From Candidatus Omnitrophota bacterium (GTDB lineage: Bacteria > Omnitrophota > Gorgyraeia > Gygaellales > Profunditerraquicolaceae), in NCBI GenBank assembly GCA_030650425.1, contig JAUSED010000002.1, forward strand, positions 2,388 to 66,387: 64,000 nt of DNA, in the 5' to 3' direction. This document shows positions 14,770-43,044 of the stretch, in pieces. Positions within the stretch are counted from its first letter, which is position 1. Each line of letters opens with the position of its first letter. The position numbers and the translations under genes were made by a program. A model generated the notes under the pieces. The model saw nothing but the letters and a program-made list of their open reading frames with translations. It was not told where the DNA came from and did not search any database.

Positions 14770-16158
14770 TTAAATCGGGAGCACCACGTTAATCGTAGTT
14801 CCCTTTCCGAGTCCGGACTCGATATGCATTGAACCGTCTAAAACTTCCACCCTCTCTTTTAAACCTACAAGCCCTAAACGCAGCTTATCTTCCCTGCGCC
14901 TTAACAATCTCTGCGTGACTAACTGGTAATCGAAACCCCGGCCATTGTCATGATAAAATAATTCCAGGGAATTTTTATTCCTATTCAAACGCACCTCGAC
15001 ATTTTTAGCCTTAGCGTGCTTAGCCATATTCGTAAGCAGCTCCTGAATTATACGATAAATTAATAAACTGTACTCCGGGGGTAATTCAAAATTGTTATCT
15101 GCCTTCTGAAAAATATATTCCACTCCGGTAAGTTGTTTCGTCTCTATAAGCAGCGACTCAAGGCTCTCTAATAACCCTACCTCGTCTAAATCCGGCGGCC
15201 TAAGCAAAAAAGCTATATTGTGGCTTTTATCAATAAGCGTTGAAGCTATCTTTTTACATTCTTCAACCTTTGTAATTAAATCTTCCGGGGACACATTGCT
15301 TTTAAAGCAATGTGTCCCCGGAAACCCTGCTAACTCTTGTGAGATCAGCCCCAAGTAAATCTTCAGCGCGCTTAAATCCTGGCCCATTTCATCATGCACC
15401 GCTGTGGAAAGTTTTTTGCGTTCACTCTCCTCCATATTGATCAAGCGGTTAAAAAGCTGCTGGCGATAAGAGTGTTCTTTTATCCTGCGCCGGTATACTG
15501 AAACCGCGATCAGCGTCCCGATAAGCAGCGCGGCCATTAAACTAAGCCTCAAGAAAAGAACCGCCTGCTCCTTATCCGCATTAGCCAAAAACATCTGCCG
15601 CTCAACCTCTTGCAGATTAGCCTTACCCATAGAGCTATCCAGGAATTCGTCTATTTTATAAACGCGGTTTTCAAACGTCATCAGCAGATTATTCACAGTA
15701 TCGCTCGTTTTGTCGGATTGCCCCAGATCAACCAATTCCACTATTTTTGCGCCCAACGCCAGAAGCTCATTGAAAGACGCGGTTATCTGATTTGCCCAAT
15801 CTTTCTGCTGCGCCAGATAAGCGCTATCTTGGTAAATCTTAAGCTGTTTTTTAAATTTATCCCCGGCGCCTAAGATGCTATTTATGTTGACGGCCATAGG
15901 CAGGGCGCCCAGATAACGCGACGATTTCCAATATACATAGTTACGCACACCCATCGCGTAGATTGTATTGCTTATCCGCATTTCAAGTACCGCTCCTTCA
16001 AGCCTAAGGCTATGCTTTCCTAAATCTTCGATTTTTCGGCTAAGCCCGTTGATCTGAGAAATGGAGACCAAGCCGATTACCAACGTAAGCAGAATTAAAA
16101 ACGCGAAAGCAAAGAGAAGTTTTTTTTCCTTAAAATTTATCGGCTTTATATTTTCCAT
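14770..16158 (-). CDS. Sensor histidine kinase (HisKA_3/HATPase; NarX/UhpB-like) with N-terminal TM segments
   Basis: The H-box is AVHDEMGQDLSALK. The ATPase region reads NVEVRLNRN…FYHDNGRGFD…GLVGLKERVEVLDGSM. An in-frame palindromic insertion at 15285-15321 encodes GTHCFKSNVSP. Confidence 0.85.
   Translation of the reverse strand: MENIKPINFKEKKLLFAFAFLILLTLVIGLVSISQINGLSRKIEDLGKHSLRLEGAVLEMRISNTIYAMGVRNYVYWKSSRYLGALPMAVNINSILGAGDKFKKQLKIYQDSAYLAQQKDWANQITASFNELLALGAKIVELVDLGQSDKTSDTVNNLLMTFENRVYKIDEFLDSSMGKANLQEVERQMFLANADKEQAVLFLRLSLMAALLIGTLIAVSVYRRRIKEHSYRQQLFNRLINMEESERKKLSTAVHDEMGQDLSALKIYLGLISQELAGFPGTHCFKSNVSPEDLITKVEECKKIASTLIDKSHNIAFLLRPPDLDEVGLLESLESLLIETKQLTGVEYIFQKADNNFELPPEYSLLIYRIIQELLTNMAKHAKAKNVEVRLNRNKNSLELFYHDNGRGFDYQLVTQRLLRRREDKLRLGLVGLKERVEVLDGSMHIESGLGKGTTINVVLPI
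15285..15321. repeat. Inverted-repeat element GGGGACACATTGC-TTTTAAA-GCAATGTGTCCCC, in frame inside the histidine-kinase CDS
   Basis: Perfect 13-bp arms. It is related to the GGGGACACTTTCC…GGAAAGTGTCCCC family at 27154, 41334 and 42980. Confidence 0.8.
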
Positions 16159-16165
16159 TTATACT

Positions 16166-16270
16166 GGAAACTGTTTCCAATCTGTGAGGGAAACTGTTTC
16201 CGAGCCAATCGGGAAACTGTTTCCCGAACAACTCGGAAACTGTTTCCGCTTTGGGATGGAAACTGTTTCG
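16166..16270. repeat. BIME/REP-like array C: five GGAAACTGTTTC(C/G) copies with 10-bp spacers
   Basis: tggaaactgtttccaatctgtgagggaaactgtttccgagccaatcgggaaactgtttcccgaacaactcggaaactgtttccgctttgggatggaaactgtttcg. It fills the whole gap between the secretin stop (16272) and the kinase start (16158). Confidence 0.85.
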
Positions 16271-16271
16271 C

Positions 16272-18335
16272 CTACTTTTGACTTTTCTCTTCTTGCCATT
16301 TCTCGAACTCTTTGACACGCTGCAGCGCCTCTTTGGTCCAGTCATCGTCGGGATCACCGTAGGAAACACGCTTGCGCCAGTAATCCAGGGCCTTAGCGCT
16401 ATCCCCTTTCCCTTCGTTAAATAAAGCTAAGTTAGCATAGGCTGCCGCGTAATCCGGATTAACGGAAATTGCCTTAAGATACATCGCTTCGGCCTCTCTG
16501 GGCTTACCCTCCTGTTCATAAATAATCCCTAAATTATTGTAGGCCGGAGCTAATTTATTATCCAATTGAATGGCTTTAAGGAAAAATTCTTTAGCATCCT
16601 TAGGGTTAGCATCGGCTTGCGCGCGCAGCCCTTTTTGATAATAATCATTGGCATTATCCTGAAGCAAAAAGTGACTGTCACTTTTGTGACTGTCACTTTT
16701 TTTCTCTCCCGATGGTAAATCCATAGTTGCCTCTTCCAATGCCTCATCCCGAGCCACCTTTTTTTGCAGGTTTTCGGGAAGATACTCATTGGGAATAAAC
16801 TGCGTTATTTTCTTGCCTTTTAAATCCATATCCCCGCGGATGATATGCGGAGTAATAAAGATGATAACCTCGGTTTTGGTAATCGATTTATCGCGGTTGC
16901 TGAAAAGCGCGCCGAGAAACGGAATCTTGGAAATTATTGGCACCCCTACAATATCATCAGTCTCCTCAGTCTTAGTCATCCCGGCAAGCACAATCATCGT
17001 TCCGTCCTTAACCTTGACTGTCGTCTCTGACTGTGAAGTTTGAACAATCGGCACAAGGCTCCCCAACGCTGTGGTGAGCGTTTGTTTAACCGAGCTGACT
17101 TCGGGTTTAAGCTTCATCGTGATAAAACCGTCGGCACCGATCCGGGGGACGATTTTTAATTTCACGCCCACATCGACAAACTCTACCGACTCCGAAGTAA
17201 CTGTGGTCGAGGTTGCCTGGCTCTGCGTCTGAGTGATATAAGCGTCACGCTCGCCAACCATCAGGTTGGCTTCTTCATTGTTCACAATCGCGATCCTCGG
17301 CTGTGAAATGACATTGGTCTTGCCGTAAGTTTCCAGGAATTTTATTAAAATATGATTTCCGCTGGTCGTGGTATTCACGAGGATCTGCTGGTAGTTGGTC
17401 AAAGTAATAGGAAAGTAACCGGTAAAGGTAATTCCATTATTTACCGCGGCTTTCATGATCTCCTGCCAATCTATCCCTCTTTGAAACTCTTTGCTTAAGG
17501 TCAGCTCAATTACATCCGCTTCCACATAAACCTGCCGGGATTCCTCATCTAACTCTCTTACCAGCCTTTCTATTTTCTCCATCTTCTTCGGCAGGTCGCT
17601 GACGATCGCCTTTTGGCTTCTTTCGTCAATAATCACCTCGCCTGTCCCCGGGGTGATCGCCGCGTTCAATTGGGTTTTGGCGTCGGCGGCCTTAGCGTAA
17701 TTAAGGTTAAATACCGACGTACCCAGCGGCTGGTCCAGTTCAGTAATCGTTTCCTTCAATAATTTCAGCTTTTCCGGTGTATCGATAAGTATGACTGTGC
17801 CGCTTGTTTCATCGACGACGATTTTACCTACGTCGGATTTTAATTGCCCCAGCGCGTTAAAAATCGTCGCGGGCTTGGCATAAGTAAGCTTAACCATTTC
17901 TAAGTTTCTCTGGTCAATGTAATCTTTACCGTAAATTTTCTTGTATTCTGCCGCGGTCATCACATAATAAACGTTTCCCTTTTTGTACGAAGCAAGGTCC
18001 TGCGTAAGCAGAATGATATCCAAGACATCGTCAAATACAACATTACTCAAATAGATGGTAATGCGCCCGGATATGCCTTTACTGGGGACGATGGTCTTTC
18101 CGGTTTTAAGGGAGATGATCCGCAAAAGTTCGACAATTTCAACATTCTTCAGGTCGAGAGAGATTTTATCTTGCTCAAGCGCTCCCTTTTGACCCGCCTG
18201 TTTTACCTCGGCGGCGTAAGTCGAAAGCGGGGCAATCAAGAAAAAGGTGACAAAGGTGACAAATAGGGACAGCGCCAATTTTTTCAATAGCCTTTGGATT
18301 AGTAAAAAATGGTCGCTGTCCCTATTTATCCTCAT
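16272..18335 (-). CDS. Secretin (GspD/PilQ/MshL family) with a C-terminal TPR-repeat extension
   Basis: The secretin core reads …VISQPRIAIVNNEEANLMVGERDAYITQTQ…IPFLGALFSNRDKSITKTEVIIFITPHIIR. The C-terminal TPR units read YYQKGL…AYNNLGIIYEQEGKPREAEAMYLKAISVNPDYAAAYANLALF. An in-frame doublet palindrome at 16670-16697 encodes KSDSHKSDSH. Confidence 0.85.
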   Translation of the reverse strand: MRINRDSDHFLLIQRLLKKLALSLFVTFVTFFLIAPLSTYAAEVKQAGQKGALEQDKISLDLKNVEIVELLRIISLKTGKTIVPSKGISGRITIYLSNVVFDDVLDIILLTQDLASYKKGNVYYVMTAAEYKKIYGKDYIDQRNLEMVKLTYAKPATIFNALGQLKSDVGKIVVDETSGTVILIDTPEKLKLLKETITELDQPLGTSVFNLNYAKAADAKTQLNAAITPGTGEVIIDERSQKAIVSDLPKKMEKIERLVRELDEESRQVYVEADVIELTLSKEFQRGIDWQEIMKAAVNNGITFTGYFPITLTNYQQILVNTTTSGNHILIKFLETYGKTNVISQPRIAIVNNEEANLMVGERDAYITQTQSQATSTTVTSESVEFVDVGVKLKIVPRIGADGFITMKLKPEVSSVKQTLTTALGSLVPIVQTSQSETTVKVKDGTMIVLAGMTKTEETDDIVGVPIISKIPFLGALFSNRDKSITKTEVIIFITPHIIRGDMDLKGKKITQFIPNEYLPENLQKKVARDEALEEATMDLPSGEKKSDSHKSDSHFLLQDNANDYYQKGLRAQADANPKDAKEFFLKAIQLDNKLAPAYNNLGIIYEQEGKPREAEAMYLKAISVNPDYAAAYANLALFNEGKGDSAKALDYWRKRVSYGDPDDDWTKEALQRVKEFEKWQEEKSQK
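16670..16697. repeat. Doublet palindrome GTGACTGTCAC-tttt-GTGACTGTCAC inside the secretin CDS, in frame
   Basis: agtgactgtcacttttgtgactgtcactttttt. Confidence 0.85.
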
Positions 18336-19840
18336 ATTTTTCTTTCGCGGCCGGAATTGTCGGCTCCGGTAATTATCGTCGGGGTAATAAAGATAATCAA
18401 TTCTGTTTTTGTATTTTCCTTACTTCTGCTGCTAAACAACGGGCCAATTATAGGGGTCCGGGATAATCCGGGCAGGCCGTTTATGCTCCCGGTATCTTCA
18501 TTTTTCATCAGCCCGGTTATAATTAAGGTGGAGCCGTCTTTAACCTTGACCACTGTTTCTGATTGAGAAGTCTGAACTATGGGGACCTGCGAACCGGCAG
18601 CCGTAGTCAAGGTACTCGTTACGCTGCTAACCTCAGGCTTGATTTTCATCGTGATATACCCGTCGGCGCCGATAGTGGGAACAACGCTCAGTTTAACCCC
18701 TACGTCGATAAACTGAATACTCTCGGAAGTAATAGTGGTGGTTTCAGCCTGACTCTGGGATGCGGTTACGTAAGCTTGGCGGCTACCCACAAGAAGCTTT
18801 GCCTCTTCCTTGTTTACCACCACAATCCTCGGCCGGGTAAGCACCTTAGTCGTGCCGTATTGGTTAAGTAAATTCATCACCGCGTTAAAATTATCTCTGG
18901 TCAAGACGCCTAAATCTATCCTTCCGTAAGAAGATAGGGCTGGGCTCACCGCGAAATTACCCACCAAATCCAACTTTTGCCTTCCCGCGTCTTTAAAGAT
19001 TCCCTCCCACGATATGCCGCTTTGTAATTGATCATCGAGGGTAATCTCGATTATCTCTCCGCTAATCAACACCTGCCTGCTTTGTTCATCAAATTCTGCC
19101 ATTAGCTTTTTAATCCTGTTCACCCTTTGAGGCAGGTCAGTAACCATCACTTTAGCGCTCCTCTCGTCAACGATCACCTGTCCTACTCCCGGAGTAATCA
19201 AATCATTAATGTAGGTTTTGAGGTCGGCGAAACGCGCGTAGTTGATATCAAAGACCGCGGTCTCCAGCGGCTGATCCAGTTGTTTGATCGTATCCTCGAT
19301 TACGCGTACTGACTGCGGGGCATCGATGATGATAATCGTTCCGGTAGAATCATCGGAGATTATTTTGCCTACATCGGATTTTAAGTTTGAGATAACATTC
19401 ATCACATTCGCCGGCTTGGCATAGTTCAATTTGATCGTCTTGGTCTCCTTGCGCTCCCAGAATTTTTTGCCGTTGGCCTTTTCGTATTCGGCCCCGGTCA
19501 TTACTTTGACGATTTTACCTTTTATTTCATACGCTAAATCCTGCATCGTCGTAATCACATCCAAGGCGTCGGTAAAGGAAAGGTTATCCATAAAGACAGT
19601 AACCCTTCCTTTAACCTCGGGAGTGGTAATCACCGTCATCCCGCTTTTCTCCGAGAGCATTTTAAATAACTCATTAATTTCTACTCCTTTTAGATCCAGG
19701 GTAATCTTGCTCTCGCTTTTCTCTTCGCCTGTTTGCGGCTGAGCGGGCGCGCTATCCTGTTGAACATCTTCCGCGGATAAAGAACTAAGGCCCATCCAGA
19801 AAATAACCGTAAACGTAACCAATACAAATCCGGCTCTCAT
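18332..19840 (-). CDS. Secretin paralog (GspD/PilQ family), directly upstream of the TPR-secretin with a 4-bp overlap
   Basis: …VLTRPRIVVVNKEEAKLLVGSRQAYVTASQ…GLPGLSRTPIIGPLFSSRSKENTKTELIIFITPTII. The N-terminal domains are homologous to those of 16272-18335. Confidence 0.85.
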   Translation of the reverse strand: MRAGFVLVTFTVIFWMGLSSLSAEDVQQDSAPAQPQTGEEKSESKITLDLKGVEINELFKMLSEKSGMTVITTPEVKGRVTVFMDNLSFTDALDVITTMQDLAYEIKGKIVKVMTGAEYEKANGKKFWERKETKTIKLNYAKPANVMNVISNLKSDVGKIISDDSTGTIIIIDAPQSVRVIEDTIKQLDQPLETAVFDINYARFADLKTYINDLITPGVGQVIVDERSAKVMVTDLPQRVNRIKKLMAEFDEQSRQVLISGEIIEITLDDQLQSGISWEGIFKDAGRQKLDLVGNFAVSPALSSYGRIDLGVLTRDNFNAVMNLLNQYGTTKVLTRPRIVVVNKEEAKLLVGSRQAYVTASQSQAETTTITSESIQFIDVGVKLSVVPTIGADGYITMKIKPEVSSVTSTLTTAAGSQVPIVQTSQSETVVKVKDGSTLIITGLMKNEDTGSINGLPGLSRTPIIGPLFSSRSKENTKTELIIFITPTIITGADNSGRERKI

Positions 19841-20496
19841 CTTAATTCGTAGTCGCTTGTTTTTCCGCCGGAAGAAATCTCCAAGGTGGCTGAATTACGC
19901 GAAACCTCTTTAATCTTAAATTGTTCGTTTTCAAAAGAATCGCCTTTTTTTAAAACATAGGTCCGGGAGTTAGGATCCTTGCCGTACTCAATCATTACTT
20001 CAGGGTTAGCTGACCAAATGATCCCCACTAACTTTAAATCCTTAGTCAGTTCGGCCACTTTTGGGCCATCTGTTTCAACAGATTCAATGGGTTTAACCCC
20101 GGGCGGAAGGAAAATATCTCTTTTGATATCCTGAGGTAAAACATTTTTACGCAGGATACCCTGGTTTTCTCTCGAAGAAATCACTTTGGATATCGCCGCC
20201 GCGTCGGTAGAAGTAAAATAAGCGGCATTGGAGGCCGAAACAACCGGCCCGCTTAAAAGGCTGTAAATTAAAAAAAGGGTAACTACGGAGGCGGTTAAGA
20301 CCAAAACCTTATTGAGAAGGGGAAGGTTGAACTTAAATTCTTTAATATCTTTCAGGTTTAAGCCGAATTTATGTGTAGGTATAAGCTCGGATAATGATTT
20401 TTTCGGGCTTACGCCGATACTTGGCTTACGCTTGATTTCACCTGTGCCGCCTTCGATAATCTTTAGTAGTCTTTCGTCTGAAGTCCCCTTATCCAT
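19837..20496 (-). CDS. PilP/GspC-like secretin-associated protein. A short cytoplasmic N-terminus and one TM precede a periplasmic β-domain.
   Basis: The TM segment is VLVLTASVVTLFLIYSLL. The C-terminal region reads GIIWSANPEVMIEYGKDPNSRTYVLKKGDSFENEQFKIKEVSRNSATLEI. It sits directly upstream of the secretins. The track start METVSKGK is a translation of a GAAACAGTTTC repeat, so the start is moved to the ATG at 20496-20494 (MDKGTSDE…). Confidence 0.5.
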   Translation of the reverse strand: MDKGTSDERLLKIIEGGTGEIKRKPSIGVSPKKSLSELIPTHKFGLNLKDIKEFKFNLPLLNKVLVLTASVVTLFLIYSLLSGPVVSASNAAYFTSTDAAAISKVISSRENQGILRKNVLPQDIKRDIFLPPGVKPIESVETDGPKVAELTKDLKLVGIIWSANPEVMIEYGKDPNSRTYVLKKGDSFENEQFKIKEVSRNSATLEISSGGKTSDYELR

Positions 20497-20505
20497 TTTT
20501 CCTTT

Positions 20506-20564
20506 CGAAACTGTTTCCATCCCAATCGGGAAACTGTTTCCGAGCCAATCGGGACAGTGTCCCC
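20506..20564. repeat. BIME/REP-like array D: GAAACTGTTTCC, GGAAACTGTTTCC, and the hybrid GGGACAGTGTCCCC
   Basis: cgaaactgtttccatcccaatcgggaaactgtttccgagccaatcgggacagtgtcccc. Confidence 0.85.
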
Positions 20565-20570
20565 TCTCCG

Positions 20571-21395
20571 CTATACCGCATTCCTGGCAATTAAATCCCG
20601 CACTAAGGTCGCGTCGATCACCGTCTTATTACTGGTAATCAAGCTCCTGAGCGCGTTATGACAAACTAAATTTATCCTGCGCGGATATCCCTGGCTATAA
20701 CGATGAATCTCGCTAATTGCCTCATCTGTAAAGAGTTTCAGCTCAGAATTAAACCCCGAGGCCCGCAACCGGTAATTGATCATATCCCTTGTCTCTTTTT
20801 CATCCAGGGGATTGATTACATATTTAAGGACGATGCGGTCAAAAAAGTTCTTGATCTCTTTGATCCGCGGGAGGAGCTCCATCTGGGAAAAAAGGACCAG
20901 CTGTAATAATTTATATTCGTTGGTTTCATAATTTAACAAGACGCGCAATACTTCTAAGGAAGCCGGATTAAGTTTTTGCGCTTCATCCACCACAAAAACA
21001 ATCGTTTTATTTTCTTCCACGCCTTTTTGAAAAAGAAACTTCTTGATCGCCTCTTTATAATCCAACACATTGGGAGAAGATTTAATTTCATCCTGAATGC
21101 CGAAGGTGCGTACTAGCGACTCCATAAAAAGTTCTTCACTCTGGGGGGTAGGATCCATAATCATATAAAAAAGAATATCTGGCCGCTCCTTTAACATCTG
21201 AAAAAGCTTACGCGATAGAGTAGTCTTACCCACCCCCACATCTCCTAAGATGACGCTTAATCCACGGCGCAAACGTATCTCGACCAAGACTCGAAGCAGG
21301 CAGGCCTTATGTTCGATAGATTCATAGAAGAAAGCCGGATCCGGGCTGCTGGAGAAAGGTTCTTTTTCTAAACCTAATACGGTATAATAGCTCAT
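20571..21395 (-). CDS. AAA ATPase of the ExeA/GspA/MshM family
   Basis: The Walker A motif is GDVGVGKTTL and the Walker B motif is TIVFVVDEAQKL. The family is usually encoded next to secretins. Confidence 0.7.
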   Translation of the reverse strand: MSYYTVLGLEKEPFSSSPDPAFFYESIEHKACLLRVLVEIRLRRGLSVILGDVGVGKTTLSRKLFQMLKERPDILFYMIMDPTPQSEELFMESLVRTFGIQDEIKSSPNVLDYKEAIKKFLFQKGVEENKTIVFVVDEAQKLNPASLEVLRVLLNYETNEYKLLQLVLFSQMELLPRIKEIKNFFDRIVLKYVINPLDEKETRDMINYRLRASGFNSELKLFTDEAISEIHRYSQGYPRRINLVCHNALRSLITSNKTVIDATLVRDLIARNAV

Positions 21396-21622
21396 TGTCC
21401 TTTTAACAAAATCCCCCGGATAAGATGCAGCGAATATCCCTGGCTCTTAAGCTTGCTTATTCTGGCTAACCCGGAGCGAACCTCCCGGATACTATATAAA
21501 CGGTTATTCCCCTCCCTCCTGCGTACTTTTAATAAACCCAAGTTCGTATAATAATTGATTGTCTGATAAGAAAGATTGTATTTCTTGCTGATTTCAATAG
21601 GTGAGATTAAAGTTTTTGCCAT
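21392..21622 (-). CDS. Small MerR-family helix-turn-helix DNA-binding protein
   Basis: ISPIEISKKYNLSYQTINYYTNLGLL is a MerR-type HTH. A strong AAGGAGG ribosome-binding site lies 6 nt before the ATG. Confidence 0.55.
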   Translation of the reverse strand: MAKTLISPIEISKKYNLSYQTINYYTNLGLLKVRRREGNNRLYSIREVRSGLARISKLKSQGYSLHLIRGILLKGQ

Positions 21623-21649
21623 CGCGCTCCTCCTTAAGGTGCTTAGAAC

Positions 21650-21705
21650 AATAAATATAGTAAGTTATAGTAGATGCTATAACACCATGACAAATGCTAT
21701 AACAT
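21650..21705 (-). promoter_or_regulatory. Putative sigma70-like promoter with an 11-bp direct repeat (TGTTATAGCAT ×2, 20 bp apart) overlapping the -35 box and the spacer
   Basis: On the minus strand: TATAATatgTTATAGCATtTGTCAtggtgTTATAGCATctacTATAACtta… This reads as TTGTCA-N18-TATAAC and lies upstream of the MerR-like/MshM/PilP/secretin gene string. Confidence 0.35.
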
Positions 21706-21894
21706 ATTATACATTTTGTCAAGTAAAATCTTCAATTTTACCGTCGGAGAGGTAAATTTTGGCGATTTTTTAAATTTTTTTATAAAAAGATTGCTTTTAC
21801 AACTTTTAAACCATCCGCTTTCATTAGATAGTGATTTTTTACGTATCTTGAGTATTTACACAGTCTTTTACTCCAGCAAAAAAATAGATACAGC

Positions 21895-21924
21895 CCCTAA
21901 TAGAGATTTCAATCTCTATTAGGG
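21895..21924. repeat. Perfect 13-bp-stem hairpin CCCTAATAGAGAT-ttca-ATCTCTATTAGGG
   Basis: Read directly from the sequence. It is intergenic, in the 450-bp AT-rich region upstream of the secretin operon. Confidence 0.8.
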
Positions 21925-22034
21925 CTATCTAAAATTGCATTAAATCATCCTGAAGAAAAAATCTGGGGAAAGCAATTATTTTTGTAAAAAAAGGGGGACG
22001 GTTATATTTTTCGGGTTTTCTGATGCCAAAAAAA

Positions 22035-22073: not shown

Positions 22074-22080
22074 ATAAATC

Positions 22081-26009: not shown

Positions 26010-26050
26010 TTTATAGACAGTTAAACGCGTCCCACTTTCCCGATTACCTC

Positions 26051-26133
26051 GGAAACAGTTTCCCTCACAAGTTGGAAACAGTTTCCATTCTAAAGGGGAA
26101 ACTGTTTCCGAGGTAAGGCGGAAACTGTCCCCC
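26051..26133. repeat. BIME/REP-like array E: four copies (GGAAACAGTTTCC ×2, GGAAACTGTTTCC, and the hybrid GGAAACTGTCCCC). It overlaps the last 14 codons and the stop codon of folC.
   Basis: ggaaacagtttccctcacaagttggaaacagtttccattctaaaggggaaactgtttccgaggtaaggcggaaactgtccccc. Confidence 0.85.
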
Positions 26134-27529
26134 GGGCTTCTCCTACTACATATAATGAACCGGTAACTAAAATTAAGTCTTGTTTTTCGGTAAGCATTAA
26201 AGCTAGATCTTTTGCCTCTTTGACGCTATTTGTAATATGCGTTTCTTTACCTTTGAAGTATTTTTTAAGAACCTCTGGCTCGGTTGCGCGCGGGTTATTG
26301 GATTTAGTCAATATAATCTTATCGGCTAAAGCATAAAGTTCTTGCGCTACCCCTTTTATGTCCTTATCACCTGAGATACCTAACACCAGAATCAAATTCC
26401 GGTAATAAAATCTTGTTTGAATCGCCTTTTTTAAAATCGCGGCGGAAGCGGCATTTTGCGCGCCGTCTAAAACAATAACCGGCTGCTTAGCTACCAATTC
26501 GCAGCGGCCCGGCCATAAAGTATTATAAAGCCCTCTCCTCAGAGAATCAACCTCGACTTTAATTGCGTGGCCTCGCAAAGAGCCGATTGCGGCTAAGGCA
26601 GTTACGGCATTCATCACTTGATGCGCTCCAATTAATTTTATCTTTAGATTTTTATAATTTCCATAAGGACCGCTGATTCTAAAATTATCTTCATTCCCGC
26701 TATATTCTATATCTTTTCCTACTACCAATAATCTTGCTCTTTCTTTTTTACATTTACGCCTGATAACCTCCAATGCCTCTTTTTTTTGCGGAGCGGAAAT
26801 TACAGTAGAATTATATTTAATTATTCCGGATTTTTCCGAAGCTATCTTCTTTAGCGTATGGCCTAATTTATCCATATGTTCATAACTTATCGGAGTAATC
26901 ACGCTTACTAAAGGATTAACCACATTCGTCGCGTCTAATCTTCCGCCTAAGCCGGTCTCTAAGACCGCTAAATCAACTTTTTTTTCTTGAAAATATAAAA
27001 AGGCTAAAGCTGTGCAGGCTTCAAAAAAGGTAAGTCGGCCGTAAATCGAACTACGGTTATATTTTTCTATCGCGGGTTTTAATCTTTTCACTAAACTGGT
27101 GAGCTTAGGCTTAGAAATCATCCCTTCAAAGTCGGCCAGGGACAACGCATTGACAGGGGACACTTTCCTTTGGGCAGCAGGAGACACTTTCCTGCAGGAG
27201 TTTACGACTTGCTGGAAAGTGTCCCCTGCCAGTGGAACCAAAATCCTTATTCGTTCGCGAAAATCGATTAGATGCGGAGAGGTGTAAAGCCCGACCCGGA
27301 AACCAGCTTCCCTTAATATATAGGTAATAAAAGCAGCTGTGGAACCTTTACCTTTTGATCCGGCTACGTGGATACATTTAAGGAAGCGCTCAGGGTTATT
27401 AATTGAACTCAGGAATCCTCGGAAGCGCTTTAAATCCAGCGCTTCTTTATAGGGATAGCTGGAAAGCTTTTCGTAGTTAACCAAAGATTCCAGGTAGCGG
27501 ATTGCTTCTTGGTAGGACATACTAAACAA
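26090..27529 (-). CDS. folC: Bifunctional folylpolyglutamate synthase/dihydrofolate synthase, carrying an in-frame inverted-repeat insertion
   Basis: The Mur-ligase/FolC motifs are VAGSKGKGSTAAF and …LETGLGGRLDATNV… The insertion at 27154-27228 encodes …LAGDTFQQVVNSCRKVSPAAQRKVSPV… The C-terminal tail …ALPRKQFPL comes from the repeat array. Confidence 0.85.
   Translation of the reverse strand: MFSMSYQEAIRYLESLVNYEKLSSYPYKEALDLKRFRGFLSSINNPERFLKCIHVAGSKGKGSTAAFITYILREAGFRVGLYTSPHLIDFRERIRILVPLAGDTFQQVVNSCRKVSPAAQRKVSPVNALSLADFEGMISKPKLTSLVKRLKPAIEKYNRSSIYGRLTFFEACTALAFLYFQEKKVDLAVLETGLGGRLDATNVVNPLVSVITPISYEHMDKLGHTLKKIASEKSGIIKYNSTVISAPQKKEALEVIRRKCKKERARLLVVGKDIEYSGNEDNFRISGPYGNYKNLKIKLIGAHQVMNAVTALAAIGSLRGHAIKVEVDSLRRGLYNTLWPGRCELVAKQPVIVLDGAQNAASAAILKKAIQTRFYYRNLILVLGISGDKDIKGVAQELYALADKIILTKSNNPRATEPEVLKKYFKGKETHITNSVKEAKDLALMLTEKQDLILVTGSLYVVGEARGTVSALPRKQFPL
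27154..27228. repeat. Inverted-repeat element (GGGGACACTTTCC … a degenerate GGAGACACTTTCC copy … GGAAAGTGTCCCC), in frame in folC
   Basis: tgacaggggacactttcctttgggcagcaggagacactttcctgcaggagtttacgacttgctggaaagtgtcccctgcc. Confidence 0.85.
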
Positions 27530-35014: not shown

Positions 35015-35033
35015 AAAGTTTTAGCTCCGCTTA

Positions 35034-35914: not shown

Positions 35915-35915
35915 C

Positions 35916-36995: not shown

Positions 36996-37899
36996 CCTTT
37001 AACTCGCGGGCTTTCGATATATCCGTTTTTGCCTGAGTGAAAAACTGCTCGATCCTATCCTTAACCGAAACAGGGAGTTTAGTAAGTTGGTTCAAAGATT
37101 TTTTTATTTTCTCTATATCGTCTTCTCCAATCGGCCCGGCGCTAGCCCCCCCAAGCTTCAGATAATCCAGAAGCTTATTAATCTCTTCTTCCATCGTGTG
37201 CGCTTGAGTGTCGAGGCCGGATAAATCGATTTTAATCCCGGTAATCATAGCTAAGGCATTTAAAACAGCGGCGGAGGCTTTAGGATTTTCAATCTGGATG
37301 GTATAAAGCGGTATCTCACCTAAAAGGCAAAGTCCGCTCAATCCTTCTCTTTTGGCTATCCCCAAGAAAAGGCCGTTCATCCCGCTGATCTGGCCGTCAT
37401 TTAAACTATTGAGCTTTAATTTCTTAAGGTTATTACTGAGCTCTTCGGAAGTAGCAGCGAACCAAATTCCGGAATTCTGCGTGTGGTCAATGGTCTGAGG
37501 CATAGAAGCAAAACTGATCACCTTATCCGCCTTGAAACTCTTGGCAACTTGAATAATGATTTTGGAGTAACTTTCAGCCCGCGCTAAATCCGGTTGGGCG
37601 TTGCTGAGAAAGATAATCAGGTCATTCTTACCTTCTTTGTTCTTCCAGAAATAAAATTTACTCTCTGGAAGTTCTGAAGTACTCAATAATCCTTTTTTGA
37701 CCACACTCCCGGATAAGTAGAAGAACCCTTCGGGCTGTATGGAAGCAAATTCTTGGGCATTTAACTTCTCGACCAGATAAGAGGCGGCTTTAAAAGCTAC
37801 CTCCCCCATTCCCGGCCAGGCAACAACTAGATACGGTTTTTTTAAACGCGGACTTTTAGTAATTTTAATCCCTTCCATGATCATTGCTCCTTTATGCAA
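36910..37899 (-). CDS. PAC2-family protein (COG1938; ATP-grasp-related, 'proteasome assembly chaperone 2'-like)
   Basis: …KKPYLVVAWPGMGEVAFKAASYLVEKL… is a PAC2-like N-terminus. The similarity covers the full length. Confidence 0.5.
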   Translation of the reverse strand: MHKGAMIMEGIKITKSPRLKKPYLVVAWPGMGEVAFKAASYLVEKLNAQEFASIQPEGFFYLSGSVVKKGLLSTSELPESKFYFWKNKEGKNDLIIFLSNAQPDLARAESYSKIIIQVAKSFKADKVISFASMPQTIDHTQNSGIWFAATSEELSNNLKKLKLNSLNDGQISGMNGLFLGIAKREGLSGLCLLGEIPLYTIQIENPKASAAVLNALAMITGIKIDLSGLDTQAHTMEEEINKLLDYLKLGGASAGPIGEDDIEKIKKSLNQLTKLPVSVKDRIEQFFTQAKTDISKARELKVELDKWNVYKEYEDRFLDLFKKTGGKNN

Positions 37900-37906
37900 A
37901 AGATTG

Positions 37907-39031
37907 TTAAAATTGATAATTTACCAGAAAATTCTCCAAAACTTGAGCGCCTTTATACAAATTATCGATCTCTGCATACTCGTCGGAAATATGCGCGCAG
38001 CCGCTTGAGCCAAATCCTGAGGCAATCGCCGGAATATGCTTATCTTGAAAAAACGTAATCACGGTCGCGCCTTCCGAACCACACACGCGCGGCCTTACTC
38101 CGAAAACCCGCATTGCTTTTTTTAAAGAGCTGACTAAAGGGTGTTTTTCAGAGATGGTGTAAGCCTGCTGAATCCCCTGGATCTCTATTTTATACTTTTT
38201 GGCGCGTTTATTTAGGGCCGTTTTAAGCGCCTTCAACACATCTCCGGGTTTTGTCCCGGGTAAAAAACGAAAATCCAGTTCAAATTCGCACCAATCAGCC
38301 ACCACATTTACCTTATCCCCTCCTTTGATCGTTCCAACATTGACCGTAGGAGGTTTAAGATATTTATTTTGAGAGTAGGGAAATTTATATTCCTTGATCT
38401 CTTTGATCACTGACGAAGCCAGCTCAATGGCATTCACACCCAGATAAGGATAAGCGCCATGCGCTCGCTTACCCGCGATCTTAACCTTAAGATGTATAAG
38501 CCCCTTCTGTGTTACAACAATCTGGAAATCGTCGGCGTCTAAAACCAAGGCTGCGTCCGGTTTGATTATCTTTTTATCCAAGAGCGGAATTAAACCTAAA
38601 TCCGAACCGCACTCTTCATCCGCGGTGGCAGCAAGAATAAGGTTATAGCCCAAGTACTTTTTATCTTCGATGAGGCTGTTGACTGCCTCTATGGCGCAGG
38701 CGAGATTACCTTTGCAATCCGTCGCGCCTAAACCATAAATTTTATTCCCGCTAATTTTTGCCGCGAAAGGGCTAACCTTCCAGTTCTTCCCGGCGCAGAC
38801 AGTATCCAAATGCGGAGTAATCAATAATGAGCGTTGATTACCCGGCCTTTCTAAATAAGCGATCAGATTAGAACGCTTCTTTCTGAATTCATAGATACTT
38901 ACCCGCAGCCCTAATTTCTGAAGATATCCTCGCGCAAAATTAGCCAAGGCTGATTCATCGCCAGGCGGATTTTCGGAATTTATCTGGATTAGCTTACGGG
39001 TAAGCTTGATAAGGCGGACTTTATTAATCAT
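37907..39031 (-). CDS. M20-family metallopeptidase/deacylase (ArgE/DapE-like)
   Basis: …GLGATDCKGNLA…DEECGS…HGAYPYLGVNAI… carries the M20 metal-binding signatures. Confidence 0.75.
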   Translation of the reverse strand: MINKVRLIKLTRKLIQINSENPPGDESALANFARGYLQKLGLRVSIYEFRKKRSNLIAYLERPGNQRSLLITPHLDTVCAGKNWKVSPFAAKISGNKIYGLGATDCKGNLACAIEAVNSLIEDKKYLGYNLILAATADEECGSDLGLIPLLDKKIIKPDAALVLDADDFQIVVTQKGLIHLKVKIAGKRAHGAYPYLGVNAIELASSVIKEIKEYKFPYSQNKYLKPPTVNVGTIKGGDKVNVVADWCEFELDFRFLPGTKPGDVLKALKTALNKRAKKYKIEIQGIQQAYTISEKHPLVSSLKKAMRVFGVRPRVCGSEGATVITFFQDKHIPAIASGFGSSGCAHISDEYAEIDNLYKGAQVLENFLVNYQF

Positions 39032-39063
39032 CTCAATTTACTTGCCTATATTATAGCAGAATC

Positions 39064-39702
39064 TCAGGAAAAATCCAGCGGACAGCTGGAACATTTGGGT
39101 TTTGACTTAAGGCAAAAATTTTTTCCTAATGCCACTAAGAGCGCGTGGTATTCGTTAAATAGTTTCGCGTCATTTTCTAAATTAAGCATGAATAATGCTT
39201 GGGCTTGGCCATAAGCAGCGTCATTGCTTAACAGCTTGTGCCGCGAGAATATTCTTTTAGTATAGGCGTCGATCACAAAAACAGGCTTGTTTAAGGCGTA
39301 AAGCAATATCGAATCGGCTGTTTCCGGCCCGATCCCTTTTACCAAAAGGAGCTCTTGGCGTAAAGTATTCAATTTAGGTTTGGAAAATTTTTTTACATTT
39401 CCTTCATAATTATGAATAAAGAACCTGAGAAATGCTTTTAAGCGCTTAGTTTTGATATTGTAGTAACCGGACGGACGAATAAGCCGGGCAAGCAAAGCAT
39501 CCGGCAAATTATAAAGTTTACGCGGCTCTAATACTTTATGCTTTTTTAAATTAGCTATCGCCTTTTCGACATTTTGCCAATTGGTGCTTTGAGTAAGTAT
39601 CGCTCCGACCATCACCTCAAAAGCTGAATCAGCCGGCCACCAAGCTTGCGCGCCGAAATGAGCATATAGCTTACGGTAGATTGCGTTTAATCTTTTTCTC
39701 AC
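39064..39702 (-). CDS. HhH-GPD DNA glycosylase related to endonuclease III (MagIII/COG2231-like)
   Basis: The helix-hairpin-helix reads LLLVKGIGPETADSILLYAL, followed by an Asp in VIDAYTKRIF. The C-terminal cysteine cluster reads CLKSKPKCSSCPL. Confidence 0.65.
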   Translation of the reverse strand: MRKRLNAIYRKLYAHFGAQAWWPADSAFEVMVGAILTQSTNWQNVEKAIANLKKHKVLEPRKLYNLPDALLARLIRPSGYYNIKTKRLKAFLRFFIHNYEGNVKKFSKPKLNTLRQELLLVKGIGPETADSILLYALNKPVFVIDAYTKRIFSRHKLLSNDAAYGQAQALFMLNLENDAKLFNEYHALLVALGKNFCLKSKPKCSSCPLDFS

Positions 39703-40794
39703 TTAGCGCCGGAATTTATAATACACATTACAGGATCCTTCAGTAGTAACCATACATGGCCCGACAGGATTATCCGGCTGGCAGGCTTTAGCAAATAAGG
39801 GGCAATCCGATGGAAGAATCAGCCCTTTTAAAACATCGCCGCAGCGGCATTGTTTTATTGGTTTTATTACGACCTTATTACTACGAAGAGCAAAAACCCG
39901 GTTAGTATCGAATCTTGAATATGTATCTTTTAACTTCAGCCCGCTATCCGGTATAATCCCAAACCCGCGCCAATCTGAGTCCGTTCTCTCAAATACCCGG
40001 CTTATGGCTCTCTTTGCCCGCGGATTTCCCCCCGGAGTAACGATGCGCGTATACTGGTTAGCAACATAAGGTTTATTTAAGCTGATCTGTTCGAGGATAA
40101 TGCATATCCCTTCCAGAATATCTACAGGTTCAAATCCCGCGACGCAACAAGCTGTTTTATATTTTTTAGGGATAAACGCGTAATCTTTGGTTCCGATAAT
40201 CGCCGAGACATGCCCCGGGCAAAGAAACCCGTCGATTTTAAGCCTTTTATCCGCTAAGAGATATTTCATTGCCGGCGGGATTAATTTAAGCGCGGAAAAA
40301 AAAGAGAGGTTCTTTAACCTTTCTTTTTGACCGGCAAGTATACTTAAGGCAATCGTAGGAGCAGTGGTTTCAAAACCCACCGCTAAAAAAATTACTTTTT
40401 TATCCGGATTGGCGAGGGCGATAGTTACGGAATCTAAAGGAGAATAGATTACCCGTATATTGCCGAACTTAGTTTTCTCTTTTTCCAAAGATGAGAAGGT
40501 TCCGGGTATGCGCAGCATATCGCCGAAAGTAACGATAAGCGCGTCTTTATCCTTAGCCAATTCAATGGCGCTATCAATGTACCCTTGAGAGCTCACGCAT
40601 ACCGGGCAGCCCGGCCCGGAGATCAACCTTATATTTTTGGGAAGCAGCTCCTTAAGCCCAAAGCGGCAAAAGTTTTGCGTGTGCGTGCCGCAGACCTCCA
40701 TTATATTGATATTATTTCCGGGGTTTAAATCCATAATCTTAGCGCTGATTTTTTCAACCAGCTTAGGATTACGGAATTCGTCAATGTATTTCAT
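39703..40794 (-). CDS. hypD: Hydrogenase maturation factor HypD
   Basis: The conserved motifs are CGTHTQ, GPGCPVC, GFETTAP and CPGHVSAI. Confidence 0.85.
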   Translation of the reverse strand: MKYIDEFRNPKLVEKISAKIMDLNPGNNINIMEVCGTHTQNFCRFGLKELLPKNIRLISGPGCPVCVSSQGYIDSAIELAKDKDALIVTFGDMLRIPGTFSSLEKEKTKFGNIRVIYSPLDSVTIALANPDKKVIFLAVGFETTAPTIALSILAGQKERLKNLSFFSALKLIPPAMKYLLADKRLKIDGFLCPGHVSAIIGTKDYAFIPKKYKTACCVAGFEPVDILEGICIILEQISLNKPYVANQYTRIVTPGGNPRAKRAISRVFERTDSDWRGFGIIPDSGLKLKDTYSRFDTNRVFALRSNKVVIKPIKQCRCGDVLKGLILPSDCPLFAKACQPDNPVGPCMVTTEGSCNVYYKFRR

Positions 40795-40993
40795 TGGCTA
40801 TCTTTAAGGTTTCTTTGGCTCTCTGCGGATCAACTTTTTCAATAGCAAAACCCGCATGAACCAATACATAATCCCCGATTTTTAGGTCGGGAAGCATCTG
40901 AATGTTGATCTTGCGTAAAAGCCTTCCGCACTCAACTTCGGCAAAATCATCGTTAATCTTTTTGACTTTCATCGGTATACCTAAACACATCAT
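40781..40993 (-). CDS. hypC: Hydrogenase maturation factor HypC (HupF/HypC family)
   Basis: The N-terminus MMCLGIPMKV matches the MC(L/I)(G/A)(I/V)P signature. The length is about 70 aa. It overlaps hypD by 14 nt. Confidence 0.85.
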   Translation of the reverse strand: MMCLGIPMKVKKINDDFAEVECGRLLRKINIQMLPDLKIGDYVLVHAGFAIEKVDPQRAKETLKIANEIH

Positions 40994-42099
40994 TAACCTC
41001 CATACCCCGCGATTACAGCCTGGCCTAAAGAAATACCCGCGTCATTGCAAGGCAAATATTGATGCGTAAAAACCTGAAAACCTTCTTTGTTTAATAAACC
41101 CGAGCTCATCTTGAGTAAAACTTTATTCTGAAAAACTCCTCCGGATAAAGCGATTTTATTTGTCCTATGTTCTTTTCTTAAAATCAGCGCTATTTTCACC
41201 ATCATTTCAGCTACGCCTTGATGGAAACGCCAAGCAATCTTTTCCCGAGATATCTTTAACTTTAAATCTTTGATAATTTGTTTAAGAATATTAGTCGGAT
41301 CTAAAATATACCCGCCTTTATCCTTCCTTATCACAGCAGGGGACACTTTCCTACGCGCGTTTACTATTTGTTGGAAAGTGTCCCCTGCTGTTGACGCCTC
41401 GGCTAATTTTTCCAGCTCAATTGCCAGCTCTGCTTCAAACGCCGCTTTCCTTTTACCCAAAACAAGGCTTCCTGCCGCGTCAAAAAGCCTGCCCATACTA
41501 CTGGCTAAAGGAGAATTGATCCCTGATTTATATATTTTATTTAAAATCTGTTTTTTATCTACGCTCTGATCAAAATTAAGCCAAGCTGCCAGCGTTCTCC
41601 ACGGTTCGAATATCGCCCGCTCTCCTCCAACCAGAGGAATTTCTTTTAAATGCGCTAAGCGCGAGAATTTTTGATAATCACAGAGCAAAACCTCTGCTCC
41701 CCAAATAGTATTATCCGTTCCTAAACCAGTCCCGTCAAAAGCCAAGCCGATTATTTTTTGGTTTTCCAGCCCATTTTCCGCCATGCAAGAAGCGATATGC
41801 GCATGGTGATGTTGAACATGTAGTATATAGTACTTAACAGGCAGGGATTCGCTAAATTTAGTTGACTGATACTCAGGGTGTAAATCGCAGGCGATAATCT
41901 TAGGATGTTTTTTAAGGAAATGTTTTGCGTCTTTCTCAAAAGCCGCTAAATCCTTAGGCCTGCTTAGGTCCGCATGCAGCGGGCTAAGATAAGCGCCATC
42001 CCCTCGCGCGAAACAAATAGTATTCTTGGCCTGGCCGCCTAAGGCCAAAACCGTATTCTTTAATTTAAAAGGCAGCCTAACTTCTAGTGTTTTCATCAA
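40993..42099 (-). CDS. HypF-like carbamoyltransferase consisting only of the C-terminal Kae1/YgjD-like domain. The acylphosphatase, Zn-finger and YrdC domains are absent.
   Basis: The C-terminus KIALSGGVFQNKVLLK…PCNDAGISLGQAVIAG and the HHHAHI motif match the HypF C-terminal domain. The ORF is only 368 aa. An in-frame inverted-repeat insertion at 41334-41390 encodes STAGDTFQQIVNARRKVSPAV. Confidence 0.7.
   Translation of the reverse strand: MMKTLEVRLPFKLKNTVLALGGQAKNTICFARGDGAYLSPLHADLSRPKDLAAFEKDAKHFLKKHPKIIACDLHPEYQSTKFSESLPVKYYILHVQHHHAHIASCMAENGLENQKIIGLAFDGTGLGTDNTIWGAEVLLCDYQKFSRLAHLKEIPLVGGERAIFEPWRTLAAWLNFDQSVDKKQILNKIYKSGINSPLASSMGRLFDAAGSLVLGKRKAAFEAELAIELEKLAEASTAGDTFQQIVNARRKVSPAVIRKDKGGYILDPTNILKQIIKDLKLKISREKIAWRFHQGVAEMMVKIALILRKEHRTNKIALSGGVFQNKVLLKMSSGLLNKEGFQVFTHQYLPCNDAGISLGQAVIAGYGG
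41334..41390. repeat. Inverted-repeat element CAGCAGGGGACACTTTCC…GGAAAGTGTCCCCTGCTG, in frame in the hypF-like gene
   Basis: cagcaggggacactttcctacgcgcgtttactatttgttggaaagtgtcccctgctg. Confidence 0.85.
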
Positions 42100-42916
42100 T
42101 CAGCTCGATATGCAGGATATTGTCGACTCTAAACGAACGTTCTTGGCGCTTCAGGCAGCAGTAGCCGATTAAATAATCACGGCTATTCTCCCGCTTAATT
42201 TCCTTTGGAACAACCTGACGCTTAGTGACCTGCGCGCTGGAAGCGGAAATATATTCTATTTTGAGCTGGCCCTTTAAATTCATCGCCTCCTGAATCTGGG
42301 CAATCTTTTGGTTATTGATGTTTTCCAAAAGAACCGGATCAATACTGAATAAACCGACAAATTTATGGAAGTCGGATATGCCTTTAGCTTTAAGCATATC
42401 CTTTAACTTATAAAATACGGCTAAAGTAAGCTCAACATCCGAAAATGCGCGGTGTTGCTGTTGAATGGTTATCCCCAGCGCATCCGCCACAAACCAAAGC
42501 GCGTAGCGTCCTAATCCCGGCATCAGGCGCTTAGCCATCTTCAGCGCGTCGATAATTAAAATGTCTTTTAACGCGGGAAGCCCCAAAATTTTAAATTCAT
42601 TATTCAAGAATTCCAAATCAAAACCCGCGTTGTAGGAACAAAGGCAGCTTCCTTGAATAAAATCGATAAATTTAGGGATTACCTCTTCAGGCAGAGCCGC
42701 ATCTTTAAGCATTTCCGCGCTGATTTTATTCACCGCAAAGGCTGCTTCGGATACAGGCCTGCCCGGATTTACCAGCGCCTGAAACTCGGATATCTTTTCC
42801 AAACCTTTAAATTTTAAAGCCGCAAGCTCAACGATCCTGTCTCCCGAAGAAGGGTCAAGGCCGGTAGTTTCGGTGTCAAAAATTACAAATTCTATATCAT
42901 CGATATTTCTGTTCAT
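42077..42916 (-). CDS. DnaQ-like 3'-5' exonuclease (DEDDh; DNA polymerase III epsilon family) with a C-terminal extension
   Basis: Exo I reads FVIFDTETTGLD, Exo II reads YNAGFDLEFL and Exo III reads HRAFSDVELT. Confidence 0.75.
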   Translation of the reverse strand: MNRNIDDIEFVIFDTETTGLDPSSGDRIVELAALKFKGLEKISEFQALVNPGRPVSEAAFAVNKISAEMLKDAALPEEVIPKFIDFIQGSCLCSYNAGFDLEFLNNEFKILGLPALKDILIIDALKMAKRLMPGLGRYALWFVADALGITIQQQHRAFSDVELTLAVFYKLKDMLKAKGISDFHKFVGLFSIDPVLLENINNQKIAQIQEAMNLKGQLKIEYISASSAQVTKRQVVPKEIKRENSRDYLIGYCCLKRQERSFRVDNILHIELIDENTRS

Positions 42917-42979
42917 ATTCTACATTCTCTGTAGGGACAGAACATTGTTCTGTCCCTACACCATTTGGTGTATCCATGG

Positions 42980-43044
42980 GCAGTAGGGGACACTTTCCGT
43001 CAGGGCTATCAGGAACCTCTTGAAAGGAAAGTGTCCCCTACTGC
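42980..43044. repeat. Inverted-repeat element GCAGTAGGGGACACTTTCC…GGAAAGTGTCCCCTACTGC (19-bp arms). Its right half supplies the last 13 codons and the stop of the DUF2156-like gene.
   Basis: gcagtaggggacactttccgtcagggctatcaggaacctcttgaaaggaaagtgtcccctactgc. Confidence 0.85.

Follow-up and report, generated by a model that had tools for sequence, protein, structure and literature searches.

Palindromic repeats read in frame within protein-coding genes of a Candidatus Omnitrophota genome resemble REP-type elements

We analyzed 64,000 nt of a metagenome-assembled genome (MAG) of Candidatus Omnitrophota, the whole of which is called the window here, and describe a family of short inverted repeats built around the motif GGGGACAC, some copies of which are read in frame by the genes in which they lie. 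A repeat finder located inverted repeats at four sites, in the genes for FolC, a HypF-like hydrogenase-maturation protein and a sensor histidine kinase, and at the 3′ end of a gene for an LPG_synthase_C (DUF2156-type) protein. All four lie inside minus-strand open reading frames (ORFs), and every one of these host ORFs is open, as an original prediction, made by reading the sequence alone, had claimed (Table 1).

Table 1. Positions of the host genes, the elements and other features of the window
Feature	Position (strand)	Size	Description
HypF-like host gene	40993-42099 (-)	368 aa	Pfam HypF_C, HypF_C_2; PDB 3vth alignment
FolC host gene	26090-27529 (-)	479 aa	Folylpolyglutamate/dihydrofolate synthase; Pfam Mur_ligase_M, Mur_ligase_C; PDB matches
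Kinase host gene	14770-16158 (-)	462 aa	Sensor histidine kinase; Pfam 4HB_MCP_1, HisKA_3, HATPase_c
Fourth host gene	43009-43950 (-)	313 aa	LPG_synthase_C (DUF2156-type) protein, C-terminal extension into element; Pfam
Kinase copy	15283-15323	41 nt	Near-perfect palindrome, 20-nt perfect arms and 1-nt centre, TTCCGGGGACACATTGCTTT-A-AAAGCAATGTGTCCCCGGAA
FolC copy	27148-27234	87 nt	21-nt arms, 90% complementary; second inner pairing 27177-27229
HypF copy	41333-41391	59 nt	22-nt arms ACAGCAGGGGACACTTTCC / GGAAAGTGTCCCCTGCTGT, 95% complementary; 21-nt loop
LPG_synthase_C/DUF2156 copy	42980-43044	65 nt	19-nt perfect arms, GTAG-tagged (tag at 42983-42986)
Short palindrome with ninth GGGGACAC	20551-20564		GGGACAGTGTCCCC, GGGGACAC at 20557-20564; between ORFs 19837-20520 and 20571-21395
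GTAGGGACAGAACA/TGTTCTGTCCCTAC family	42930-42960		Intergenic or at gene junction
AAATAGGGACAGCG...CGCTGTCCCTATTT family	18258-18330		Intergenic or at gene junction
GyrB ORF	60699-63770 (-)		Mini-intein, Intein_splicing aa 471-653
Palindrome in GyrB	61933-62028	14-nt perfect arms	CGTC-tagged, ACGTCATTGCGAGG ... CCTCGCAATGACGT, inner CGAAGCAATC hairpin
Secretin-protein ORF	16272-18335 (-)	687 aa	
Units in secretin-protein ORF	16666-16701		Two GTGACAGTCAC units, A/T-run flanks
DUF2341-containing ORF	9612-12587 (-)	991 aa	
Units in DUF2341-containing ORF	10644-10702		Two GGGGACAGTCCCC units, A/T-run flanks
GGAAACWGTTTCC palindrome arrays	26033-26128, 12410-12466, 12636-12695, 16166-16247, 51423-51458		23-nt spacing; fill intergenic regions
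Giant ORF	1-9620 (-)	>=3207 codons	Runs off left end of window

The motif GGGGACAC occurs nine times in the window against an expectation of 0.61, and none of 100 shuffles reached nine; the ninth occurrence belongs to a short intergenic palindrome rather than to one of the four elements. As RNA, the four elements fold with energies of -35 to -45 kcal/mol (z scores of -4.5 to -9 against shuffles), the HypF copy at -40.4 kcal/mol and the kinase copy at -35.4 kcal/mol, each with a z score of -9.0. The four elements lie at the sites first proposed. The arms contain no stop codon in any of the six frames. The predicted reading is TAGDTFQQIVNARRKVSPAV for the HypF copy, PLAGDTFQQVVNSCRKVSPAAQRKVSPVNA for the FolC copy and FPGTHCFKSNVSPE for the kinase copy, and the predicted insert peptides include AGDTFQQIVNAR and GDTFQQVVNSCR; the peptides quoted originally were correct on translation.

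The copies are not equally close to one another. The FolC copy is a three-arm composite, with two arms in the same orientation on the plus strand (GGGGACACTTTCC at 27156 and GGAGACACTTTCC at 27180) and an opposite arm at 27214. It shares orientation and reading phase with the HypF copy, and the two 21-nt loops agree in 14 of 21 bases. Of the 90 loops compared, neither has a closer match than the other, with a score that none of 2,000 shuffles attained. This similarity indicates a sister relationship of the two copies, which descend from one element within the genome of the window. The kinase copy is a divergent variant read in another phase; because its arm, GGGGACACATTGC, has only 11 of 13 bases in common with the family, and because no second copy of this arm variant was found among the 92 loci that we fetched, we assign it to the GGGGACAC family tentatively.

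Around the copies examined, inverted complementarity extends outward (ACAGCAG.../...CTGCTGT; GCAGTAG.../...CTACTGC) and there are no direct repeats, and thus no target-site duplication. Short tags accompany some of the arms: GTAG marks the LPG_synthase_C copy and GCAG marks the HypF copy and one FolC arm, while GAAG, GTAG, GCAG or TTAG is found with copies elsewhere. At the gathering threshold, Rfam reported only tRNAs, and relaxing the E value to 1 added only microRNA-type hairpins far below threshold, so that no known RNA family was matched. A terminator scan of positions 40000 to 44000 reported neither the HypF nor the LPG_synthase_C copy, and neither sequence has a T run; more generally, no T run follows the stem of the GGGGACAC copies in the window.

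We compared the FolC, HypF-like and kinase proteins with 29 aligned orthologues each and the genes with stretches of relatives' genomes and metagenomes that carry the arms or the orthologues (L-numbered loci, ~0.5 Mb in total). Among these, L001, L089 and L091 come from sister MAG GCA_041643315.1, the closest relative of the window. The segment of FolC between FRERIRIL and DFEGMISK has ~40 residues in the window, compared with ~3 in Thermotoga maritima FolC (1o5z) and ~8 in the L. casei enzyme, and its peptide is carried by none of the 29 aligned orthologues, which are from Omnitrophota. AlphaFold models of FolC and the HypF-like protein were made from the orthologue alignments. For FolC (mean predicted local distance difference test score [pLDDT], 81; predicted template modeling score, 0.80), the pLDDT falls below 50 exactly at insert residues 104 to 134 and does so again at residues 471 to 479, a tail encoded by a separate palindrome.

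At the HypF site, all 29 aligned orthologues (58 to 83% identity) read GAGYKFD-IIQEKG or similar, whereas the window protein reads TAGDTFQQIVNARRKVSPAVIRKDKG. At the DNA level, the element is absent from the syntenic loci L001 and L002, in which the hypF-like gene lies directly upstream of hypC and hypD (L001 7274-9638). The model of the HypF-like protein has a mean pLDDT of 89, mostly above 90 outside the insert, and drops to ~58 at aa 241 to 250, between the helix at 224 to 235 and the strand at 256 to 260. The annotated HypF-like protein (P0001) begins one residue after the start of the window ORF. Here and in all close relatives, the protein comprises only the Kae1-like C-terminal half (about 357 to 368 aa), without the acylphosphatase, zinc-finger and YrdC-like domains.

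In the kinase, the insert is found at the tip of the DHp helical hairpin, in the loop, and the HisKA_3 match takes up 79 residues against the 68 positions of the profile. The commonest form among the orthologues (451 aa) lacks an insert between the DHp helices, and none of the 29 aligned orthologues carries the peptide. An empty site is seen in L090 (84% identity), relative to which the window has a net gain of 33 nt. Overall, the close relatives L001, L090 and L092 have empty or differently filled sites at the DNA level.

These alignments identify the FolC, HypF and kinase copies as lineage-specific, in-frame, stop-free insertions in unrelated genes, and the models and structural comparisons place all three in permissive loops that are either predicted with low confidence or hypervariable. 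For FolC and the HypF-like protein, both the PDB comparison and the dips in pLDDT put the insert in a loop, in keeping with the surface location that had been anticipated. The peptides might instead have been ancestral sequence, in which case orthologues should carry them without any inverted repeat; because none of the 29 orthologues of each gene carries the peptide, this explanation fails for all three internal copies.

The fourth copy is of another kind. Orthologues of the LPG_synthase_C protein end in ...AYIARRKR (296 aa) or ...YIVRRVS (298 aa), 15 to 17 aa earlier than the window protein. The window gene reads 17 residues further, and its last 11 codons and its stop, a TGA in the loop, lie inside the element (the last 13 codons and the stop, as first described, was an overcount). 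The corresponding intergenic slot of L001 is filled by another hairpin, GAAAAGGTGACAGTCAC...GTGACAGTCACCTTTTC, which is of the GTGACAGTCAC type. Since the orthologues stop earlier and the slot in the sister MAG is filled by an unlike hairpin, the comparison identifies the fourth copy as an extragenic hairpin that the gene overlaps through a displaced stop codon, not an insertion within the gene. In-frame insertion, which had been proposed for four unrelated genes, is thus retained for FolC, the HypF-like gene and the kinase gene and replaced by 3′ overlap for the fourth.

Outside the window, a search for the exact arms, using a pattern with 26 specified bases for which chance matches are negligible, returned 86 stretches, 16 of them from species-representative genomes and 70 from metagenomes. 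No exact copy was found in viral contigs, and there is therefore no support for carriage by phages. The arm-bearing loci fall into two classes of GC content, 0.25 to 0.56 (mostly 0.40 to 0.52) and 0.63 to 0.72, and nearly all of the named genomes matched in the low-GC class are Omnitrophota MAGs. In one of these, STB_56, a 51-nt unit whose loop is AT rich and contains stop codons is present at least 13 times, in both orientations; several of these copies are accompanied ~12 nt upstream by an extra arm, an architecture shared with the FolC copy. When 56 distinct low-GC copies were sorted by ORF (minimum length, 80 codons), 41 fell between genes, 11 under the 3′ end of an ORF and 4 inside an ORF (~7%), two of the latter in the window. 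With 41 of 56 copies intergenic, the family is mainly extragenic and insertion into genes is a minority outcome; to have two or three internal copies, as the window does, is unusual. Likely real in-ORF cases elsewhere are a 702-aa ORF with a phosphoglucomutase domain (L015/L068), an AcrB-family transporter joined via the element to a DeoR-type helix-turn-helix domain (L054) and a 1,346-aa ORF (L064).

The high-GC loci (a subset of L020 to L087, e.g., L029, L033 and L052) have identical 13-nt arms. Copies there have extended stems (AAAATGGGGACACTTTCCATTTCCGG...), form terminator-like hairpins with A and T tracts, have AAAAT...ATTTT flanks and carry the tag AATG. In L029, the genes on either side of the element are divergent, and the start of a racemase gene follows it closely. 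Long ORFs are unreliable in these contigs, and many calls of internal copies in them were rejected as long spurious ORFs.

The loops that hold the internal copies in the window hold other repeat families in near relatives. The FolC loop contains an element of the GGGGACAC type in the window, AAAAAGTGACAGTCACTTTTT of the GTGACAGTCAC type together with half a CGTC-type element in the sister MAG (L091), and AAATAGGGACAGCGACC...GGTCGCTGTCCCTATTT of the GGGACAGCG type in L094; in L092, it has no palindrome, only a 7-nt tandem repeat. Likewise, the kinase loop contains the GGGGACAC variant in the window, is empty in L090, and holds the CGTC-type repeat CTCGCAATGACAGC/GCTGTCATTGCGAG in L089, where the protein is 90% identical, and GTAGGGACAGAACAG/TGTTCTGTCCCTAC of the GTAGGGACAGAACA type in L093. 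The families seen in L093 and L094 are also those of the two further repeats listed in Table 1, so that families found in the window between genes or where two genes meet are in frame elsewhere, exactly in the loops that hold GGGGACAC elements here. In 30 kb of the sister MAG, we counted 21 GTGACWGTCAC units and no member of the GGGGACAC, GGGGACNGTCCCC and GGAAACNGTTTCC families, which have 9, 4 and 15 matches, respectively, in the window. Because the two repeat sets differ in this way, orthologous intergenic slots are filled by different families even though the proteins are 75 to 90% identical.

This turnover can be read in two ways: either such loops are nearly the only sites at which insertions are tolerated and the rate of insertion is high, or existing hairpins attract newer repeats or are overwritten by them. 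We also entertain, as a tentative and rather doubtful proposal, that the Omnitrophota loops are heritable landing pads, in which later families insert into or overwrite the resident hairpin by hairpin-targeted single-strand transposition or conversion, and that the identical 13-nt arms in Omnitrophota and in the high-GC lineage reflect one conserved clade of REP-associated tyrosine transposases with a fixed recognition sequence. Were this correct, close relatives would carry different families at the same codon, and repeats would drive rapid diversification of the surface loops of housekeeping proteins. In many of the Omnitrophota orthologues of the three host proteins (HypF-like, FolC and kinase), other odd peptides recur at a few fixed loops (e.g., LPAGRQA, SLRGAE..DEAIS..IAS..PRND, KSEIRNPKQIP and SKCQSVKVS), and these look like translated palindromic or simple repeats.

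One locus links the family to a transposase. The low-GC contig L078, whose metagenome of origin accounts for 14 of the loci, has a 162-aa ORF (331-819, minus strand) that scores 54.5 bits against Pfam Y1_Tnp (cutoff, 23) and has the HUH motif NHIHIV. We detected it by tblastn with consensus queries and then confirmed it with Pfam and NCBIfam. Upstream of the transposase start, at a distance of 174 nt, is a complete element (993-1041) with part of an extra arm before it, and a degenerate arm, GGAAAGTGTAC, at 309-321 lies 10 nt past the transposase stop. A regular-expression search of all loci for HUH/Y1 motifs gave no match, the pattern being too strict. Transposases of this kind, REP-associated tyrosine transposases (RAYTs), mobilize repetitive extragenic palindromes (REPs); repeats that flank RAYT-like (TIRYT) genes are reported to have GGGGWSAS as a common motif (Di Nocera et al., 2013; PMC3733652), which GGGGACAC (GGGG-A-C-A-C) fits. 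Together these observations support, but do not prove, RAYT-type mobilization of the family.

The original prediction likened the elements to Rickettsia palindromic elements (RPEs). RPEs (RPE-1 to RPE-10) are about 100 to 150 bp long and confined to Rickettsia, and a large share of RPE-1 copies are intragenic. As in RPEs, palindromic repeats lie in frame in unrelated housekeeping genes, are absent from orthologues and occupy surface positions (for three genes here), and the inserts give similar peptides in different genes while the host fold is apparently kept. Unlike RPEs, the elements described here are 41, 59, 65 and 87 nt long, occur in Omnitrophota and are internal to genes in only ~7% of low-GC copies, and we expect no relationship in sequence. 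Because size and host lineage differ and most copies are extragenic, these elements are not members of the RPE families; the likeness holds for the effect of in-frame insertion and does not extend to the elements themselves.

Intragenic REPs, palindromes that bear a GTAG or CGTC tag, are closer. REP-type repeats carry GTAG or degenerate GYAG tags; REPs lie within genes in Opitutus terrae, Thauera, Xanthomonas and R. conorii, adding about 10 to 30 residues, with inserts of 20 to 30 residues among them; and different REPs occupy one site in a gene of related species, as in Xanthomonas recB (PMC3733652). Like these repeats and the REPIN-RAYT systems, the GGGGACAC family consists of short dispersed hairpins, mostly extragenic and near gene 3′ ends and often in inverted pairs or clusters, of which a minority lie inside ORFs as extra residues, with different repeats at one site in relatives, a possibly associated Y1 transposase gene (at one locus) and a GTAG or GYAG tag on part of the copies. 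It differs from typical REPs in its longer stems (13 to 21 bp), larger loops (16 to 45 nt) and only partly conserved tag, and in that a single arm is not palindromic, whereas each unit of a REP is an imperfect palindrome on its own, two of which in inverted order make up a REPIN. The cases in PMC3733652 did not cover Omnitrophota. Our full-text searches gave, among the hits listed, no paper on such repeats in this phylum and none that named it, and the phylum is absent from a 2025 survey of REPs. What is new is therefore the example in Omnitrophota and not the kind of event, since in-frame intragenic REPs had been documented outside Rickettsia (PMC3733652).

We consider it likely that the elements are REP/REPIN-like repeats, probably mobilized by a RAYT, and that copies in genes survive only when they are in frame, stop free and in permissive loops, where they would be translated as disordered extensions. 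The family would consist of small nonautonomous palindromic repeats with two inverted arms of 13 to 21 nt, (G-N-A-)GGGGACACTTTCC, around a variable loop of 16 to 45 nt, sometimes with an extra upstream arm, whose usual home is between genes or just beyond gene 3′ ends. A RAYT-like HUH/Y1 transposase would probably mobilize them in trans, in the form of single-stranded hairpins and leaving no target-site duplication. Insertions in coding sequence would usually be lost; those that persist here keep the frame and carry no stop, and selection, rather than targeting, would account for both frame and location. The persisting sites are the segment after the Omega-loop region of FolC, the tip of the kinase DHp hairpin and the helix-strand connector in the Kae1-like domain of HypF, each insert being predicted to add an extra, probably disordered, peptide.

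Several observations weigh against this account. Only one transposase adjacency was seen in ~0.5 Mb of loci, with a full element on one flank only; the L078 ORF scores 75.3 bits against the NCBIfam model for REP-associated tyrosine transposases (REP_Tyr_transpos), below its cutoff of 80; and there is no RAYT-like gene in the window. A single arm, GGGGACACTTTCC, is not self-complementary, and the stem needs both arms, unlike the classical REP unit; the GTAG tag is found in only part of the copies. No presence/absence polymorphism was seen within one population, so that mobility is something we infer. Finally, the HypF protein gains 10 residues net (30 nt) for an inverted repeat of 59 nt, and the indel is therefore not a clean or simple insertion. 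The clean indel that had been expected is supported insofar as the peptide is absent from all 29 orthologues of each gene, and it does not hold for the extent of the HypF copy.

That irregular HypF indel would fit a spread of the repeats not by transposition but by recombination, gene conversion or template switching that copied sequence of other hairpins in the genome onto existing ones, a dominant family overwriting older ones at fixed slots, including those in genes. The different families in the orthologous FolC and kinase slots of close relatives, and the wholesale difference between the repeat sets of the sister MAG and the window, fit this view as well. None of the 29 aligned orthologues has anything at the HypF site, however, so that at least this copy is a de novo arrival; moreover, a RAYT-like gene adjoins one copy, and replacement is equally explained by insertion targeted to existing hairpins. 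We therefore judge spread by copying alone to be unlikely. Less is to be said for classical MITEs (miniature transposable elements of the inverted-repeat type), i.e., deletion derivatives of insertion sequences with terminal inverted repeats that are moved by a DDE-type transposase and leave target-site duplications. Inverted arms around a variable core, in dispersed copies, are what such elements would give, and in-frame insertions of MITEs are known elsewhere, e.g., Coxiella QMITE1 and ERIC (PMC10969869). The likeness extends to Correia elements and to SPRITE, which are mobile repeats resembling terminators, in that all are small nonautonomous inverted repeats able to fuse to or extend ORFs and form hairpins after genes when extragenic. 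Yet no direct repeats lie beside any copy examined, the elements are only 41 to 87 nt long, no parent insertion sequence with GGGGACACTTTCC termini was found in a limited search of the ~0.5 Mb of loci, where the only adjacent transposase is of the Y1 type, and the GGGGACAC stems of the window have no T run after them, so that a MITE origin has only a slim chance of being right.

It is similarly improbable that the genic hairpins are kept for the structure of their RNA or DNA, as a translational pause, a site for RNase or for protein binding, or an internal terminator or attenuator, with the peptide as a by-product. The hairpins are indeed very stable, with perfect stems of 19 to 20 bp and z scores of about -9; the corresponding loops of relatives repeatedly hold hairpins of differing sequence; and extragenic relatives are placed like terminators or stabilizers, the high-GC copies with A and T tracts. 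Many orthologues of all three genes have no insert at all, though, the stems in the window lack a following T run, and the three genes share neither function nor operon; in any case, a structural role is compatible with REP-like insertion and does not exclude it. That the elements are not real, being chance palindromes in variable loops, ancestral sequence or artefacts of assembly or amplification, we find hardly credible. The source is a MAG, and hairpin chimeras are known from some amplification methods, but the enrichment of GGGGACAC is far beyond chance, identical 13-nt arms recur in 86 independent genome and metagenome stretches, and two copies have a common loop sequence while the orthologues have no peptide.

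In-frame palindromic insertion, best known from the RPEs of Rickettsia and from a few REP-rich proteobacteria and Verrucomicrobia, here extends to Omnitrophota, knowledge of which comes almost entirely from metagenomes. The core enzymes affected are FolC, a hydrogenase-maturation protein and a sensor kinase, as well as the GyrB mini-intein and a secretin. There are practical consequences for annotation: the inserts break Pfam matches, most insert-bearing kinase orthologues having no HisKA_3 in their precomputed domain lists, and they shift stop codons and yield odd recurring peptides in metagenomic protein sets. The most interesting part, in our view, is the swapping of families in the same loop among near relatives, which offers a tractable system for the study of hairpin targeting and of the role of repeats in loop evolution.

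Other palindromes and features lie in the window. Its left part is taken up on the minus strand by one giant ORF that leaves the window, hence the near-empty ORF list there; that region 1-9600 is noncoding was considered and rejected. In the DUF2341-containing ORF, two units are read in frame as GKRGQSPAGTVPFF and could mark the junction of two genes. The CGTC-tagged palindrome in the GyrB ORF is in frame and lies inside the mini-intein, at the usual position of the homing endonuclease. In the secretin protein, two units, read in frame as KKSDSHKSDSHF, lie in the linker that joins the secretin domain to the tetratricopeptide (TPR) repeats; by comparison with L089 and L090, this linker has one unit (KKSDSHF) in the sister MAG and is unrelated in the more distant orthologue. 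Of the palindrome arrays, the one after folC (GGAAACNGTTTCC palindrome) supplies the last ~12 codons and the stop of FolC (reading TVSALPRKQFPL), a tail that is shared by the orthologue P0124, while in L092 folC and mnmE simply abut.

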